A DNA stretch of 64,000 bases from an uncultured Chloroflexia bacterium (GTDB taxonomy: Bacteria > Chloroflexota > Limnocylindria > Limnocylindrales > CSP1-4). Below are positions 31,555 through 35,862 of the stretch, piece by piece. The notes under the pieces were generated by a model. That model was not told where the DNA came from. It saw only the letters and a list, made by a program, of their open reading frames with translations, and made no database searches. Location of the stretch: positions 1,344,001-1,408,000 of the forward strand of contig CAWEZH010000002.1 of NCBI GenBank assembly GCA_963813535.1. The letters are read 5' to 3'. A program made the translations under genes and the position numbers. Numbering within the stretch: the first letter of the stretch is position 1; each line of letters opens with the position of its first letter.

Positions 31555-33675
31555 TCAGCGGCCTCCGCGCACCTTCGGCAGCGGCGGCATCGTGTGCTTG
31601 CCGTCGACCAGGAAGTGGCGGAACCAGTCGAGGACGATCCGCAGGTTCTCGATCCGTCGGAACGGGGTACCGGAACGGGTCAGCTCGTGGGTCTCCTCGG
31701 GCACACGCAGCAAACGGACCGGGCGTCGCAGCGAGCGCAGCACGGTAAAGAGGGCCTCGGCCTGTCCGACGGTCGTCCTGATATCGCGTTCGGAGTGCTG
31801 GATCAGCAACGGGGTGTGGATGCGGTGCGCGTACGACACCGGTGAGATCTCCCGGAAATAGGCCGGGTCACTCCAGGGCGTTGCGTCGAACTCGAGCATC
31901 GCCCAGTCGCCGCCACTGATGTCGCCCGTCAGGAACAGCATCGACATGTCGCTGACCGAGCGACAGGTCATCGCGGCGCGAAAGCGATCGTCGTGGGCGA
32001 TGATCCAGTTGGTCAGGTAACCGCCATACGACCCACCGGTCAGCCCGAGGCGGTCCGGATCCGCCAGGCCCTCGGTCACGAGCGCATCGACGCCTGCGAG
32101 GACGTCGCGCATCGGCCCCTCGCCCCAATCCCGGTGGTTCCCGTCGTTGAAGTCCTGTCCGTAGCCCTCCGAGCCGCGCGGGTTGCAAAAGAAGACGCCG
32201 ATGCCCGCCGCCGCGAGGACCTGGAACTCCCAGAGCGGCGACCAGCCATACAGCGAATGCGGGCCGCCATGGATCTGGGTGACGAGCGGACCGGGTTTGC
32301 CACCACCCGCGACGAACCAGCCCTGGATGGATCGGCCTTCGACCTCGGATCGGCGTTCGACAGGTTCGATCAGCGTCAGCTCGTCGAGCACCTCGCGGTT
32401 GAACGCCGTCAGGCGACGAGGCGTGCCATCGCCATCGTTGAGCCATAGCTCCGGAGGCTCGGTCGGCGTCGAGCGGAGATAGGCGTACCGCGTCCGCCGG
32501 CCCTTCGCCACTGAATCGAATGACGAGATGTGGTGGCGATCGGTCGTCAGCCGGCGGACCGCCCCGTCGGCGGTGGAGATGCGCCACAACTCATAGCTGC
32601 CGTCGATCGGCGCGGTGAAGTCGATGCTTCGCCCGTCGGGCGATGGCCGAAGTCGGGCGATCTCGCCACGAACGATGTCGCTCGCGACGCCCGCGCCGGG
32701 CATCAAGTCGTGTCGACCCGAGATGTCACGACCACCGTCCGCGTGCGCCTCCGAGCCGTCGGCCGGGAACAGCCAGACGTCGTACCGGCTTCCGCCGCGC
32801 CCCTCGAGCTTGTTGCCGAGCGTCGCGATCGTCTTCCCGTCGGGAAGCCACGTCGGGGTGCCGAACATCGATCGCGGTCCAGCCGTGACGGCATGGACCG
32901 CGCGCGTGCTGACATCGACCACGTGGATGGCCGGCCGCAGGGTCAGGTCGTGGTCGCGATGACGCTCGGACACGAACGCGATGCGCGTGCCGTCCGGCGA
33001 CCACGCTGGCTCCGTGTCCGATACGGGGCCATCGGTGAGGCGTGTCGCGGCGCCCGTCGCCACGTCGACCAGCCAGAGGTGGCGGATGCGGTCGTACTGG
33101 AAGCCCGGGCCGTTGAGCATGTAGTTGAGCCGATCGATGAAGCGATAGTCCGATTCGGGCGGCTCGTCGGGCCTCGGCTTGCGTCCCGTCCCGCGCTGAC
33201 GCGCGTCCTCGTCGTGGGTCGCGCCGTGGGATGTCGATACGACCACAAGCCGCCGGCTGTCGGGTGACCATTCGAAGGCCTCCACACCGCGCGGCAGGTC
33301 GGTCAGCCGGCGCGCCTCGCCCGGTCCGTCGAGCGGCAGCACATGGACCTGGTCCTTGTCCTCGCGATCCTTGCTCTCCTTGGGTCGCGACGGTTCCTGC
33401 TCGGCCTGCAGCCGCCGGTCGGAGATGAACGCGAGCGAACGGCCGTCAGGCGAGAACCGGGGATGGTGGTCGTTGCGTGTGCCGATGGTCAGCTGACGAG
33501 GCGGGCCGTCGGCGGCCTGGTCGGTCGGGATGAGCCATACGGCCTGTCGGTAGCCGTCGAACGTCGGGGCGACGCTCTGGAGCGTCACGACCGCCCATCG
33601 GCCTTCCGATGAGAGGCGGGGTTCGGTCGCGACGCGCAGCCGATAAAGGTCATCCGGTCGAGGGGCTCTGGGCAC
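31555..33675 (-). CDS. S9-family peptidase (dipeptidyl/acylaminoacyl peptidase)
   Basis: WSPD propeller repeats; IHGGPH, NPRGSEGYG, GGSYGG, HSERD, ETHEL catalytic motifs. Confidence 0.92.
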   Translation of the reverse strand: MPRAPRPDDLYRLRVATEPRLSSEGRWAVVTLQSVAPTFDGYRQAVWLIPTDQAADGPPRQLTIGTRNDHHPRFSPDGRSLAFISDRRLQAEQEPSRPKESKDREDKDQVHVLPLDGPGEARRLTDLPRGVEAFEWSPDSRRLVVVSTSHGATHDEDARQRGTGRKPRPDEPPESDYRFIDRLNYMLNGPGFQYDRIRHLWLVDVATGAATRLTDGPVSDTEPAWSPDGTRIAFVSERHRDHDLTLRPAIHVVDVSTRAVHAVTAGPRSMFGTPTWLPDGKTIATLGNKLEGRGGSRYDVWLFPADGSEAHADGGRDISGRHDLMPGAGVASDIVRGEIARLRPSPDGRSIDFTAPIDGSYELWRISTADGAVRRLTTDRHHISSFDSVAKGRRTRYAYLRSTPTEPPELWLNDGDGTPRRLTAFNREVLDELTLIEPVERRSEVEGRSIQGWFVAGGGKPGPLVTQIHGGPHSLYGWSPLWEFQVLAAAGIGVFFCNPRGSEGYGQDFNDGNHRDWGEGPMRDVLAGVDALVTEGLADPDRLGLTGGSYGGYLTNWIIAHDDRFRAAMTCRSVSDMSMLFLTGDISGGDWAMLEFDATPWSDPAYFREISPVSYAHRIHTPLLIQHSERDIRTTVGQAEALFTVLRSLRRPVRLLRVPEETHELTRSGTPFRRIENLRIVLDWFRHFLVDGKHTMPPLPKVRGGR

Positions 33676-33796
33676 GGGCAGAGTCTATCGGCCCCGACTG
33701 ACGTGGCGGGAAGGCGGCTCCGAGCGGGACGCACGCCGCCCCGACCGATGGTCGAGGTGATCCGGCTGGCTGGGCGGGTCTACCATCGGCGGGACG

Positions 33797-34543
33797 ATGA
33801 CGCACCAGCTCGCCCTGCCACTCGACGCCACGGCGGATCGATTGCCCGATCTCCCGGAGCTGCGGCCGATGCTCGCGCGGCCCCTGCTGGACGCGTTCGA
33901 TTCCGATGAGCACCTGTTCGAGCCGTGGTGGGGCGGGACGCGGGCCCTGGTGTCGATCGGACCGTCGGAGCACCCGGGCGTCGGCGATGTCCGCGTGATC
34001 GATGCCGACGGCATCGATCGGACCGCAGTGCTCCCCGAGCTGGCTGGTACGGCCGTTCGCGTCGCGGCGCGCTCGGCGATCCTCGACGGCGAACTGGTCG
34101 TGGTCGATGCCGAGGGTCGCGCCGACGAGACCGCCCTCGCGCGTCGCCTCGATGGGAAGGCCGGTCGGCCCGTGGCGTTCCTCGCCTTCGACCTGCTCCA
34201 CATCGACGGGAAGTCGCTGATCGGTCAGCCGTTGATCAAGCGCCGCGAGATCCTGCGTCGCGTCCTGCGGCCCGGGGATGAGGTGGTCGCGGTGCCCGCG
34301 ATCGCGACCGAGGGCCGCGCCCTCTTCGATGCCATCGTCGCCCAGGGCCTGGCCGGGATGATGGCCCGCCAACGCCTGGGGCCGTACCTCCCCGGGATCC
34401 GGAGTCGGCTGTGGCGGTTCATCCCCGCCATCGAAGGCTCGGTGCCGGCCGCGGAGCTGGCGGAGGCGCCTGAAGAGCCGACCTCCGCGACCGCGCCTGT
34501 GCTGGCGATGCTCAGTCGGCTGCCGCTCGAGGACGAGGCCTAG
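33797..34543 (+). CDS. ATP-dependent DNA ligase adenylation-domain homologue, catalytically degenerate
   Basis: PMLA, ILDGELVV, AFDLL.IDG, PL..RR and Y.PG.RS..W are retained, but motif I reads EPWWGG instead of E.K.DG. Confidence 0.75.
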   Translation: MTHQLALPLDATADRLPDLPELRPMLARPLLDAFDSDEHLFEPWWGGTRALVSIGPSEHPGVGDVRVIDADGIDRTAVLPELAGTAVRVAARSAILDGELVVVDAEGRADETALARRLDGKAGRPVAFLAFDLLHIDGKSLIGQPLIKRREILRRVLRPGDEVVAVPAIATEGRALFDAIVAQGLAGMMARQRLGPYLPGIRSRLWRFIPAIEGSVPAAELAEAPEEPTSATAPVLAMLSRLPLEDEA

Positions 34544-35862
34544 GAGCCCGTTCGACGTGCGGCGGCGATGAAGCCCCGCAGACCCGGGCGCTGACCGTAG
34601 AGCAGCACACCGGTCGCGTAGATCCTGACCGTGACGACCGACACGAGCGCGATGGTCACGAGGAGGATCGTCACCGACAGGGCGACCTCCCACGGCTGGA
34701 CGTCGCTGACCATCAGCCGGGCGAGCATCGCGAACGGGCTGAACGGCGGGATGAACGATGCGAGCCGTCCCAGCACGCCTCCGCCCCCGAGCAGCACCAC
34801 GAGGGCCGAGAGATAGCCGGCCATCGCCACGAGGCTGAGCGGCAGCGACAGCGTCTGGAGATCGTCCGGACGGCTGACGAACGATCCGACCGCCGCGTAG
34901 ATCAGGGCGAACAGCGCGAAGCCGAGCAGGAAGAACACGCCGTACGCGCCGAGCAGGCCGATCGTGAGCCCGCCGGTCGGCAACCCGGCACCGCCAGGCC
35001 CGAGGAGCGCGCGAGCGATGTCGTCCTGGAACGCCAGGACGAGCACAGCCGGCGTCGCGATGGCGACGTACTGCGTCAGCCCGGCACCGCCGATGCCAAG
35101 GACCTTGCCGACGAGCAGCTGGCGCGGCGACGCCGCGCTGATCATCAGCTCCATGACCCGGCTGCTCTTCTCGGTGGCGACTCCCGTCGCCACCCACATC
35201 CCGTAGATCAGGATCGTGATGAACATGAGGATGAGGAAGACCGTCCCGAGGAAGCCACGACTGGCGATGACCACGGCATCGACCTGGCGGCCGCCCTCGG
35301 TCGGTCCGCCGAGCGGCGCCGTGTTGAAGGTCGGCGTTCGGAACGTGCCATCCGTCGAGCCCGGCGGCAACGAGCTCGTCCAGTCGAGGATGGCCACGGA
35401 CAGTGCCGTGAACCCGGCGAGCTGGCTTCGAACACCGTCAGGCGGTCCGGCTGTGTGGTAGGTGACGTCGAGGCTGTCATCGTCAAGCCGCACGACCTCG
35501 ATGATCCCGTCCAGCCGGCCGGCGGCGAGCTGCTGGATCGCCAGGTCACGATCAGTCGCCCGCTCGATCCGGTACGGGGGTGTCCACTCCCCGGCGGCGA
35601 CGCCGGGCGGTGGCACGTTCATGATCCCGTCCGCCGCTGCGATGGTCCCGACGGCGAGTCGCTCCTCGTCGGCGATGATCGCGATCCGGTCGACCGTCGA
35701 GCGGTCGAGGTAGCGGATGACGATCGGGGTGAGTGCCACGCCGACGGCGAGGGCCATCAGGACCAGGGTCGAGATCCGGAACAGCGGACTTCGGACGCGG
35801 TCGACGTATTCGCGCCGCGCGACGATGCCCGCGTTCGGCAGGAGCGGCTCGTCACGGGCCAT
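34540..35862 (-). CDS. ABC-2 exporter permease (NatB/YhaP-like)
   Basis: ARREYVDRVRS, VATEKSSRVMELMISA, GKVLG, PPFSPFAM motifs. Confidence 0.88.
   Translation of the reverse strand: MARDEPLLPNAGIVARREYVDRVRSPLFRISTLVLMALAVGVALTPIVIRYLDRSTVDRIAIIADEERLAVGTIAAADGIMNVPPPGVAAGEWTPPYRIERATDRDLAIQQLAAGRLDGIIEVVRLDDDSLDVTYHTAGPPDGVRSQLAGFTALSVAILDWTSSLPPGSTDGTFRTPTFNTAPLGGPTEGGRQVDAVVIASRGFLGTVFLILMFITILIYGMWVATGVATEKSSRVMELMISAASPRQLLVGKVLGIGGAGLTQYVAIATPAVLVLAFQDDIARALLGPGGAGLPTGGLTIGLLGAYGVFFLLGFALFALIYAAVGSFVSRPDDLQTLSLPLSLVAMAGYLSALVVLLGGGGVLGRLASFIPPFSPFAMLARLMVSDVQPWEVALSVTILLVTIALVSVVTVRIYATGVLLYGQRPGLRGFIAAARRTGS

Follow-up and report, generated by a model that had tools for sequence, protein, structure and literature searches.

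A lysine-less ligase homologue with two conserved terminal peptides from a Ku-linked lineage of Chloroflexota

A ligase fold without catalytic residues

The window analyzed here is the whole 64,000-nucleotide stretch of contig CAWEZH010000002.1, taken from the genome of an uncultured Chloroflexota soil bacterium (G000; the genome codes and the family codes f2 to f5 are our own). Names attached to near-identical proteins in public sources indicate a member of Candidatus Limnocylindrales. The original prediction, made from the letters of the window alone, described an intact reading frame in it as a catalytically dead homologue of ATP-dependent DNA ligases that carries a beta-clamp motif at its N-terminus and acts in replication or repair. 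The ATG-started frame was verified at positions 33797-34543 on the plus strand, as was QLALPL at residues 4-9 of the 248-residue product, hereafter called the pseudo-ligase. A conserved peptide at the other end of the protein is a feature beyond the original prediction. The features of the gene, all on the plus strand, are listed below; pLDDT is the predicted local distance difference test score of the structural model.

33780-33787, plus: CTACCATC, a -10-like (TAnnnT) box, 9 nt 5' of the ATG
33797-34543, plus: the whole open reading frame, 248 amino acids plus stop, a non-catalytic ligase homologue (frame calling, ATG start, frame intact)
33806-33823, plus: QLALPL, N-terminal candidate docking peptide, residues 4-9 (orthologue conservation)
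33827-33865, plus: Pro/Asp-rich N-terminal linker ending in LP..LRPM, residues 11-23 (indels of 0-4 residues among orthologues; pLDDT 81)
33866-34426, plus: nucleotidyltransferase (adenylation) domain without catalytic residues, residues 24-210 (PF01068, alignment to Mycobacterium tuberculosis LigD, model)
33926-33943, plus: WWGGTR, remnant of motif I (KxDGxR), residues 44-49 (alignment to M. tuberculosis LigD)
34346-34369, plus: GLAGMMAR, remnant of motif IV (EGxxAK), residues 184-191 (alignment)
34409-34426, plus: LWRFIP, remnant of motif V (W.K.K), residues 205-210 (alignment)
34427-34492, plus: low-complexity Ala/Glu/Pro(/Gly) linker, predicted to be disordered, residues 211-232 (indels, model)
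34493-34528, plus: APVLAMLSRLPL, second conserved candidate docking peptide, residues 233-244, followed by the acidic tail EDEA

Only one Pfam domain was detected in the protein, PF01068 (ATP-dependent DNA ligase adenylation), which covered residues 32-206 with an E-value of 1.9e-18 and 67 bits against a cut-off of 26. The NCBIfam model TIGR02779, which describes ligases of non-homologous end joining (NHEJ), scored 102.6 bits, far under its cut-off of 227.75, and the match to PF01331 (mRNA capping enzyme, a related nucleotidyltransferase) also fell below its cut-off. The closest solved structures were those of the M. tuberculosis LigD ligase domain (6nhx, 6nhz, and 1vs0; sequence E-value about 1e-15). 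The AlphaFold2 model, built from a 70-row alignment, had a mean pLDDT of 89 and a predicted template modelling score of 0.83, with one confident domain (pLDDT 95-98 over approximately residues 21-210). When this model was submitted to Foldseek, 6nhx and 1vs0 again ranked top, 6nhx with an E-value of 6.6e-15 and a root-mean-square deviation of 2.3 Å over 198 columns.

The protein was then aligned to M. tuberculosis LigD. The scaffold motifs PMLA, LDGELVV, AFDLL, and Y.PG.RS..W were retained, and each of the substitutions claimed for the catalytic motifs (WWGG, DA, AG..AR, and RFIP) was recovered, so that the original account of both was confirmed. Motif I reads FEGKWDGYR in LigD and FEPWWGGTR here (K to W and D to G), which removes the nucleophilic lysine and the aspartate and keeps the arginine. 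The SR motif is changed from RLRSRSG to RVIDADG (SR to DA), motif IV from EGVIAK to AGMMAR (E to A and K to R), and motif V, represented by LWRFIP, has lost both of its lysines and kept R207. The claimed loss of the OB domain held as well: PF04679 gave no Pfam match, and the 38 residues after motif V, which are disordered in the model, leave no room for it. Because motif I has lost its lysine and aspartate, motifs IV and V have lost their lysines, and no OB domain is present, the pseudo-ligase cannot be a ligase, and judging from these alignments canonical lysyl-AMP chemistry is excluded. The protein is thus very probably a non-catalytic pseudo-enzyme that would be unable to form the lysyl-AMP intermediate.

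We examined whether other members of the family share this loss in three sets of sequences: 30 orthologous loci with 49-100% identity, taken from genomes of the class, the 120 best-matching homologues in the databases (76-93% identity), and a wider alignment of 58 rows that includes the diverged subfamily described below. At the 30 orthologous loci the motif I lysine position was occupied by W, S, A, T, V, I, or H, and among wider orthologues also by R. All 120 close homologues read FEPxWGGxR, with W at the lysine position in 102, S in 17, and L in one, and none had KxDG; loss of this lysine among homologues was a check named in the original prediction. No column was conserved as lysine: the only one with more than 30% lysine in the 30 orthologues was position 148 (53%, K/R/T), and the 58-row alignment had none.

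The possibility that the gene is a decaying ligase pseudogene with no function was considered, since the catalytic residues and the OB domain have been lost. All 30 orthologous loci, the most distant of them 49% identical, had an open frame, and within the genus the ratio of nonsynonymous to synonymous substitution rates (dN/dS) ranged from 0.07 to 0.21 with a median of 0.12 (36 pairs, 9 sequences). The open frames and this ratio exclude the pseudogene reading; the fold is confident, the terminal peptides are kept, and the chance that the gene is merely decaying is practically nil. The original claim that it is not a decaying gene, together with its proposed check that dN/dS lie below 1, is therefore borne out. 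When dN/dS was calculated by region, from four non-overlapping pairs and from all 36 pairs, it was 0.05-0.12 for the N-terminal motif, 0.11-0.14 for the domain, 0.13-0.19 for the C-terminal linker (the highest), and 0.04-0.06 for the C-terminal motif, and it stayed below 0.2 in every region save the last four residues.

Relatives and the link to Ku

Representatives at 50% identity form a graded family. It includes OB-bearing proteins of 350-374 amino acids in which the motif I lysine is replaced by S, N, R, or D, and active-looking enzymes from Dormibacteria, which have KWDGLR, EGVVAK, WLKVK, and an OB domain, start with DQLQIEL, and end with ..DLTRFPF. A diverged dead subfamily of about 225-235 amino acids occurs in the class of the window itself. 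Its motif I reads FEPWWPGxR, the glutamate of motif III is lost (LDGTLLVLD), and its tails are [ED]QLxLx[IV] at the N-terminus and P.LALIxRLPL at the C-terminus; it is 39% identical to the window protein from end to end (E 4e-31).

The position of these relatives was determined in genomes in which the coordinates of both genes were seen. The tallies of Ku co-occurrence, of presence in family f4, of other families, and of PF21686 include some unpublished genomes, and the sequence-level statements rest on none of these. The diverged dead subfamily was present in 58 of 61 genomes of family f4, and its gene lay directly behind a same-strand Ku gene in 15 of 15 genomes. In G197, which represents a genus of the window's own family, the order is Ku, dead ligase, and LigD (ligase, OB, and PrimPol domains). 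Active relatives of families f3 and f5 were found directly behind Ku in 23 of 23 loci, and the active Dormibacteria type in 77 of 80. In other families of Chloroflexota, Ku was followed by an active ligase in three loci, with one further locus that had no Ku in the stretch examined; by a Lys-less OB-bearing homologue (FEVAWGGVR or FEVAWDGVR) in two loci, L255 (G399) and L256 (G243); and by a Lys-less OB-bearing homologue (FEVRWDGLR) and then an active ligase of 540-640 amino acids in two more, L257 (G265) and L258 (G327). Their presence in these loci indicates that Lys-less Ku-encoded ligase homologues recur widely in the phylum, in at least four of our coded families.

Other observations were made at these loci. 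The active Ku-operon ligase was followed by a same-strand CTP synthase gene (pyrG) in 3 of 3 loci examined (L088, L093, and L091; families f3 and f5), and in several f3 and f5 genomes a PrimPol protein of about 820 amino acids is encoded about 4.5 kb from it. Most f4 genomes (for example, G009, G063, G018, and G102) have two Ku paralogues. The one beside the dead ligase matches the Pfam Ku profile from position 2 to 176-188 (E about 1e-39 to 1e-42), and the other matches positions 1-190 (E about 1e-52 to 1e-56).

Trees were made by quick maximum-likelihood searches with midpoint rooting. In a 65-row tree, the window's type, the Ku-adjacent type, and three OB-bearing Lys-less proteins formed one Lys-less clade of 30 rows with a Shimodaira-Hasegawa-like approximate likelihood-ratio support (SH-aLRT) of 98; an earlier tree gave the same dead clade with 28 rows and a support of 95. 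From these trees, the pseudo-ligase appears to belong to an old clade of Lys-less descendants of the stand-alone ligase encoded behind Ku in Chloroflexota (Limnocylindria and Dormibacteria).

Ku was detected in 187 of 201 genomes of the class. Within the window's own family, every genome that had the pseudo-ligase gene at E<1e-45 also had Ku (44 of 44, G000 included), and the gene was found in none of the four Ku-less genomes, one of which is a genus-mate of two genomes holding both genes. No synteny of the window gene with its diverged or active relatives was found. In five Dormibacteria genomes with the active type, neither a weak short PF01068 match nor a dead paralogue was seen. We also considered whether dead versions occur only where a multidomain LigD or a PrimPol protein exists; this idea was dropped, as PF21686 was detected in 193 of the 201 class genomes and f2 was the only family without it, which leaves no contrast.

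In the window, the pseudo-ligase gene is flanked by a divergent S9 peptidase gene and by convergent genes for an ABC-2 permease and its ATPase. Given the orientation of both flanking genes, it is monocistronic. Further out lie deoC, a cupredoxin gene, ybjQ, and ppk1. At 29 of 30 orthologous loci at least one of the two flanks, peptidase or permease, was present, and at 20 both were, which is plain vertical synteny. The window contains no Ku gene, the sole Ku match of the genome being on contig C1. The original statement that no Ku gene lies nearby is thus accurate for the window, but it is misleading for the family, which is a lineage of Ku-operon ligases whose diverged dead members adjoin Ku and LigD. 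Because the gene is not adjacent to Ku here or in most of its family, its link to Ku is one of descent and co-occurrence.

The repair genes of the host include one Ku gene on C1 at L094:9643-10581, a multidomain LigD gene 3 kb away, a Lig1-like ligase gene, and genes for two LigC-like ligases without terminal peptides, together with those for one canonical DnaN encoded at C3:884850-885965, DinB, DnaE1, and an ImuB-like protein with DnaE2. The LigD gene of G000 (phosphoesterase, ligase, OB, and PrimPol domains; C1 about 87.98-90.78 kb, L094:3984-6781, minus strand) is split into two overlapping frames. Set against its closest relative (94% nucleotide identity), the gene lacks a single base in the stretch from ligase motif III to motif IIIa, so that it is either a real pseudogene or an assembly error. 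On C3 (about 250-259 kb), about 4.5 kb separate the ImuB-like gene, whose product has a weak IMS domain and the motif QLPLF, from a gene for a polymerase of the DnaE2 type, and the pair is likely a mutasome cassette. A second distinct Lys-less PF01068 family, about 245 amino acids long and lacking both the OB domain and the QL peptide, is encoded on C3 at about 619.25-619.99 kb (L007:1087-1824, plus strand); its motif I reads EPAWPGLR in G000 and FEPAWRGER in genomes of family f4.

PADLOC returned no defence-system match for the pseudo-ligase, its Ku-linked relative, or the second Lys-less paralogue. Matches in the protein atlas were confined to 'ATP dependent DNA ligase domain' clusters of Chloroflexota. 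Among longer proteins, six singletons but no recurring fusion were found at E<=1e-30. One of these singletons looks like run-through gene calling, because its cupredoxin domains are also encoded by a gene about 2 kb upstream in the window.

Two conserved terminal peptides

The family consensus of the N-terminal peptide is [DE]-Q-L-x-[LFM]-x-[LFIV]. The pattern [DEH]QLx[LFM]x[LF] was present in 30 of 30 orthologues, with the start codon one to three codons upstream in 27 of them, and the glutamine was invariant. Positions 3 and 5 vary freely (S, T, A, V, L, F, or N and P, R, H, Q, A, S, G, or D, respectively). QLx[LFM]x[LFYM] was found near the start of 119 of 120 close homologues, 117 of which read exactly QLxLPL, and the core EQLxL was found in 27 of 28 diverged Ku-linked members. 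Over the 58 rows, Q4 and L5 were at least 95% conserved. In the AlphaFold2 model, residues 1-10 have a pLDDT of 61 and no secondary structure. A start codon followed within eight codons by QLx[LFM]x[LF], in an open frame of at least 150 amino acids, occurred in 10 of the 18,319 stop-to-stop frames of the genome, and several of the others among these ten were judged by eye to be internal positions of longer frames (aconitase- and DnaB-like). The peptide exceeds chance, and its conservation among orthologues is the decisive point.

The CTACCATC box recurs at the majority of the 30 orthologous loci, and its position speaks for the annotated start and thereby for a terminal location of the QL peptide. 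The box implies that the mRNA is leaderless or has a very short leader. It occurs once in the window and 37 times in the genome; 21 of these copies sit 4-12 nt 5' of the start codon of a reading frame of at least 80 amino acids. It looks like a generic promoter element for leaderless or short-leader genes, and its position before these 21 frames suggests that such transcription is widespread. A scan of positions 33500-34750 for consensus sigma-70 promoters and terminators gave no match. On the minus strand, another -10-like box, TAGACT (33682-33687), lies a few bases before the start of the divergent S9 peptidase gene, back-to-back with CTACCATC.

At the other end of the protein, the consensus is APVLA[LM]x[RS]RLP[LF], followed by acidic residues. 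L242 and P243 were invariant in the 30 orthologues, and P234, L242, and P243 were at least 95% conserved in the 58 rows. The peptide was present in 116 of 120 close homologues, and a related [IL]x[RK]L[PG][LF] was present in 28 of 28 diverged Ku-linked members. On Ku-operon members it takes the forms RPRLxVLxSLPF, L.RFPF, and LPQLPF when the ligase is active and xRLPL when it is dead; the LigC-like and LigD proteins of the host lack it. The linker before it ranges from about 20 to about 75 residues across orthologues. In the model, pLDDT drops from 80 to 52 over residues 211-232 and lies at 59-49 over residues 221-248, with a low-confidence helix at 234-241. From this one model, the dead domain is predicted to be folded and to be flanked on both sides by flexible tails, with a short conserved peptide at the end of each. 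A search of other protein ends of the genome with the C-terminal pattern gave eight matches, none of which looked related.

A passage of PMC12309361 gives QLSLPL as the tight-binding clamp motif of Hda and QL[S/D]LF as the consensus. QLALPL fits the hexapeptide beta-clamp motif at every key position: Q and L do not vary, hydrophobic residues fill positions 4 and 6, and positions 3 and 5 are unconstrained. The host has a single canonical DnaN gene, and the corresponding motifs of its polymerases are QLELF in DinB, QLPLF in the ImuB-like protein, and QTSLF in DnaE1. Passages of PMC6212786 describe repeated gains of clamp-docking peptides, outside the catalytic core, by the ATP-dependent ligases of eukaryotes, archaea, and phage T4. 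From the motif match, the chance that the N-terminal peptide binds the beta clamp appears to be slightly under even; Ku or LigD is a possible but less probable partner, and other partners or a contact within the same protein make up the remainder.

The original prediction had proposed that loss of the motif I lysine and presence of QLxLPL are conserved together. Conservation of the QL peptide was found as proposed, but the two are not strictly coupled, because active-looking relatives (KWDGLR, OB domain) also begin with DQLQIEL or QLSIEL.

For the C-terminal peptide, docking to Ku or LigD seems the likeliest job, since it is common to Ku-operon members, is absent from the LigC-like and LigD proteins of the host, and belongs to proteins without a polymerase domain. 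According to a passage of PMC5124664, Ku recruits LigD by way of the polymerase domain, which stand-alone ligases do not have; this leaves a role for docking peptides. The C-terminal arm of M. tuberculosis Ku contacts the ligase domain of LigD (a passage of PMC13717202), and a ligase-fold decoy or co-receptor is therefore plausible. No clamp-motif-like peptide was seen in four of five Ku proteins examined; in the Ku of G016 (family f3), QAILKL occurs inside the helical stretch YKDEYKQAILKLVEAK and was taken for chance.

Proposed role and comparison with known systems

Taken as a whole, these results are best explained by a non-catalytic scaffold or regulator of Ku/LigD end joining with two docking tails, an explanation that we consider somewhat better than even. 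The broader proposal, that the protein has an accessory role in end joining, is probable judging from its lineage. For the binding partners and the effect on repair, we infer the following: the dead domain and the C-terminal peptide would dock the protein on Ku, LigD, or the DNA end, and through its N-terminal [DE]QLxLx-hydrophobic peptide it would bring in another partner, for which the hydrophobic cleft of the beta sliding clamp is the most probable candidate. More tentatively, end joining in Chloroflexota might be a three-part machine in which the dead ligase paralogue serves as a two-handed adaptor between Ku, LigD, or the DNA end and the beta clamp.

Several points weigh against this explanation. 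The gene is not beside Ku in this genome and in most of its family; the genomes behind the co-occurrence counts are kin rather than independent, and the counts carry no statistical test. Support is weaker (82-89) at the deep nodes through which the dead clade connects with the active Ku-operon ligases. A lone nucleotidyltransferase domain may bind DNA poorly, and the frameshift in the LigD gene of G000, if real, would leave the presumed partner enzyme broken here. With regard to the clamp, 5 of 28 diverged members lack a hydrophobic residue at the sixth position (QLPLPE/A/G), and at the corresponding site the active Ku-operon ligases of family f3 carry [HQ]PTL[IL][DE]V, a sequence that does not resemble a clamp motif, so that the ancestral job of the N-terminal element may have been another, such as docking to Ku or LigD. 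No paper tying the beta clamp to bacterial Ku/LigD end joining was found.

The last two of these points, the element in family f3 (for example, HPTLIDV) and the silence of the literature, also favour an explanation in which both terminal peptides are end-joining docking sites for Ku or LigD, the likeness to the clamp motif is coincidental, and the clamp is not involved. The co-occurrence of both peptides on Ku-operon ligases, active or dead, and the missing recruitment domain of stand-alone ligases (PMC5124664) agree with it. However, the N-terminal peptide has the exact clamp hexapeptide pattern, with its glutamine kept in all 30 orthologues, and the contacts published in the relevant passages of PMC13717202 are those of the Ku C-terminal arm with LigD domains. 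We regard this explanation as possible though well short of even. It would also require a kind of element for which we know of no bacterial example, namely a Ku-binding peptide. The original prediction instead placed the protein in replication or general repair, as a clamp-bound scaffold or nick sensor that resembles Hda or ImuB and is unconnected with end joining. In favour of this view, the peptide matches the Hda motif in both sequence and N-terminal position, the gene is monocistronic, away from Ku, and behind a generic housekeeping-type -10 box, and a precedent exists in ImuB, which is described as a dead enzyme with the job of a clamp adaptor. This view is improbable given the descent from Ku-operon ligases, the sister subfamily adjoining Ku, and the co-occurrence with Ku, and it leaves unexplained a conserved C-terminal peptide common to Ku-operon ligases. 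Thus, of the original scaffold claim, the part that describes a pseudo-enzyme under selection stands (dN/dS 0.12, drift at the lysine position), whereas the reading without a tie to NHEJ is improbable, given the Ku-operon descent.

The protein might instead bind a ligand or catalyse a reaction of another kind: for example, it could sense ATP, AMP, or NAD, read DNA ends that carry a 5'-adenylate or a 5'-phosphate, or use a nucleophile other than lysine. The retention of the residues that hold the adenosine in ligases (Arg49 of motif I, D97-G98-E99 of motif III, and F131-D132 of motif IIIa) and the arginine in place of lysine in motifs IV and V (R191 and R207) would be consistent with such a function. 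It is more improbable still: the lysine position drifts freely, and because the diverged Ku-linked subfamily has lost the motif III glutamate (LDGTLLVLD) and has a proline in motif I (WWPG), the nucleotide pocket is not conserved across the clade.

Bacterial NHEJ is taught as a two-protein system of Ku and LigD. If the scaffold proposed here is real, a conserved Ku-encoded dead ligase paralogue that bears two docking peptides would add to it a third member, one without enzymatic activity; and if its N-terminal peptide binds DnaN, this would be the first link of the sliding clamp to Ku-dependent repair in bacteria. The two-handed adaptor, if true, would couple break repair to the clamp, its polymerases, and its ligase, and would be the first accessory factor of end joining in bacteria as well as the first scaffold of the pseudo-ligase kind. 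Public annotation names such proteins 'bifunctional non-homologous end joining protein LigD' or 'ATP-dependent DNA ligase', so that the assigned activity is wrong and ligase counts in soil metagenomes are inflated. No Lys-less ligase homologue linked to Ku was described in the literature found outside supplementary files, passages of PMC7719229 and PMC10140301 included; Supplementary 18 of PMC10140301 (divergent LigC-type clusters) might list some. Within the same scope, no beta-clamp motif on a bacterial ATP-dependent ligase homologue was found. What is new here is a proposed pseudo-enzyme adaptor derived from an end-joining ligase, for which no printed description was found.

The pseudo-ligase shares the nucleotidyltransferase fold and the scaffold motifs of LigC and the LigD ligase domain, and its lineage is that of the stand-alone ligases behind Ku. 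It differs from them in lacking the motif I lysine and aspartate, the motif IV and V lysines, and the OB domain, and it carries two terminal peptides that the LigC-like proteins of the host, which are not linked to Ku, do not have. Its likeness to Hda is limited to the motif: both carry a hexapeptide that fits one consensus and lies a few residues into the chain, but Hda has an AAA+ DnaA-like domain, whereas the pseudo-ligase has neither an AAA+ domain nor homology to Hda (only PF01068 scored above its cut-off). ImuB, described as a dead Y-family polymerase that serves as clamp adaptor in the ImuA-ImuB-DnaE2 mutasome, follows the same logic of an enzyme fold without catalytic residues that is kept under selection with a clamp-type peptide; it combines a polymerase fold, a DnaE2 context, and one peptide, in contrast to the ligase fold, the Ku/LigD context, and the two peptides seen here.

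Short clamp-docking peptides outside the catalytic core are also known from ligases, namely the PIP boxes of Lig1 and archaeal ligases and the gp45-binding loop of T4 ligase (passages of PMC6212786), but these bind PCNA or gp45 and belong to active replicative enzymes. A precedent for the logic is found in eukaryotic end joining, in which the body of DNA ligase IV aids joining by binding rather than by sealing (PMC10858965; title of PMC9638927), a structural, non-catalytic contribution to end synapsis (PMC10858965). There, the same molecule is also the enzyme, whereas here a separate and permanently dead paralogue would do the structural job, and the peptides are not homologous. If the proposed role is correct, the pseudo-ligase would have two parallels in eukaryotic end joining, this structural role of Lig4 and the scaffolds that bear peptides. 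Among the latter, XLF, PAXX, and APLF carry Ku-binding peptides on disordered tails.

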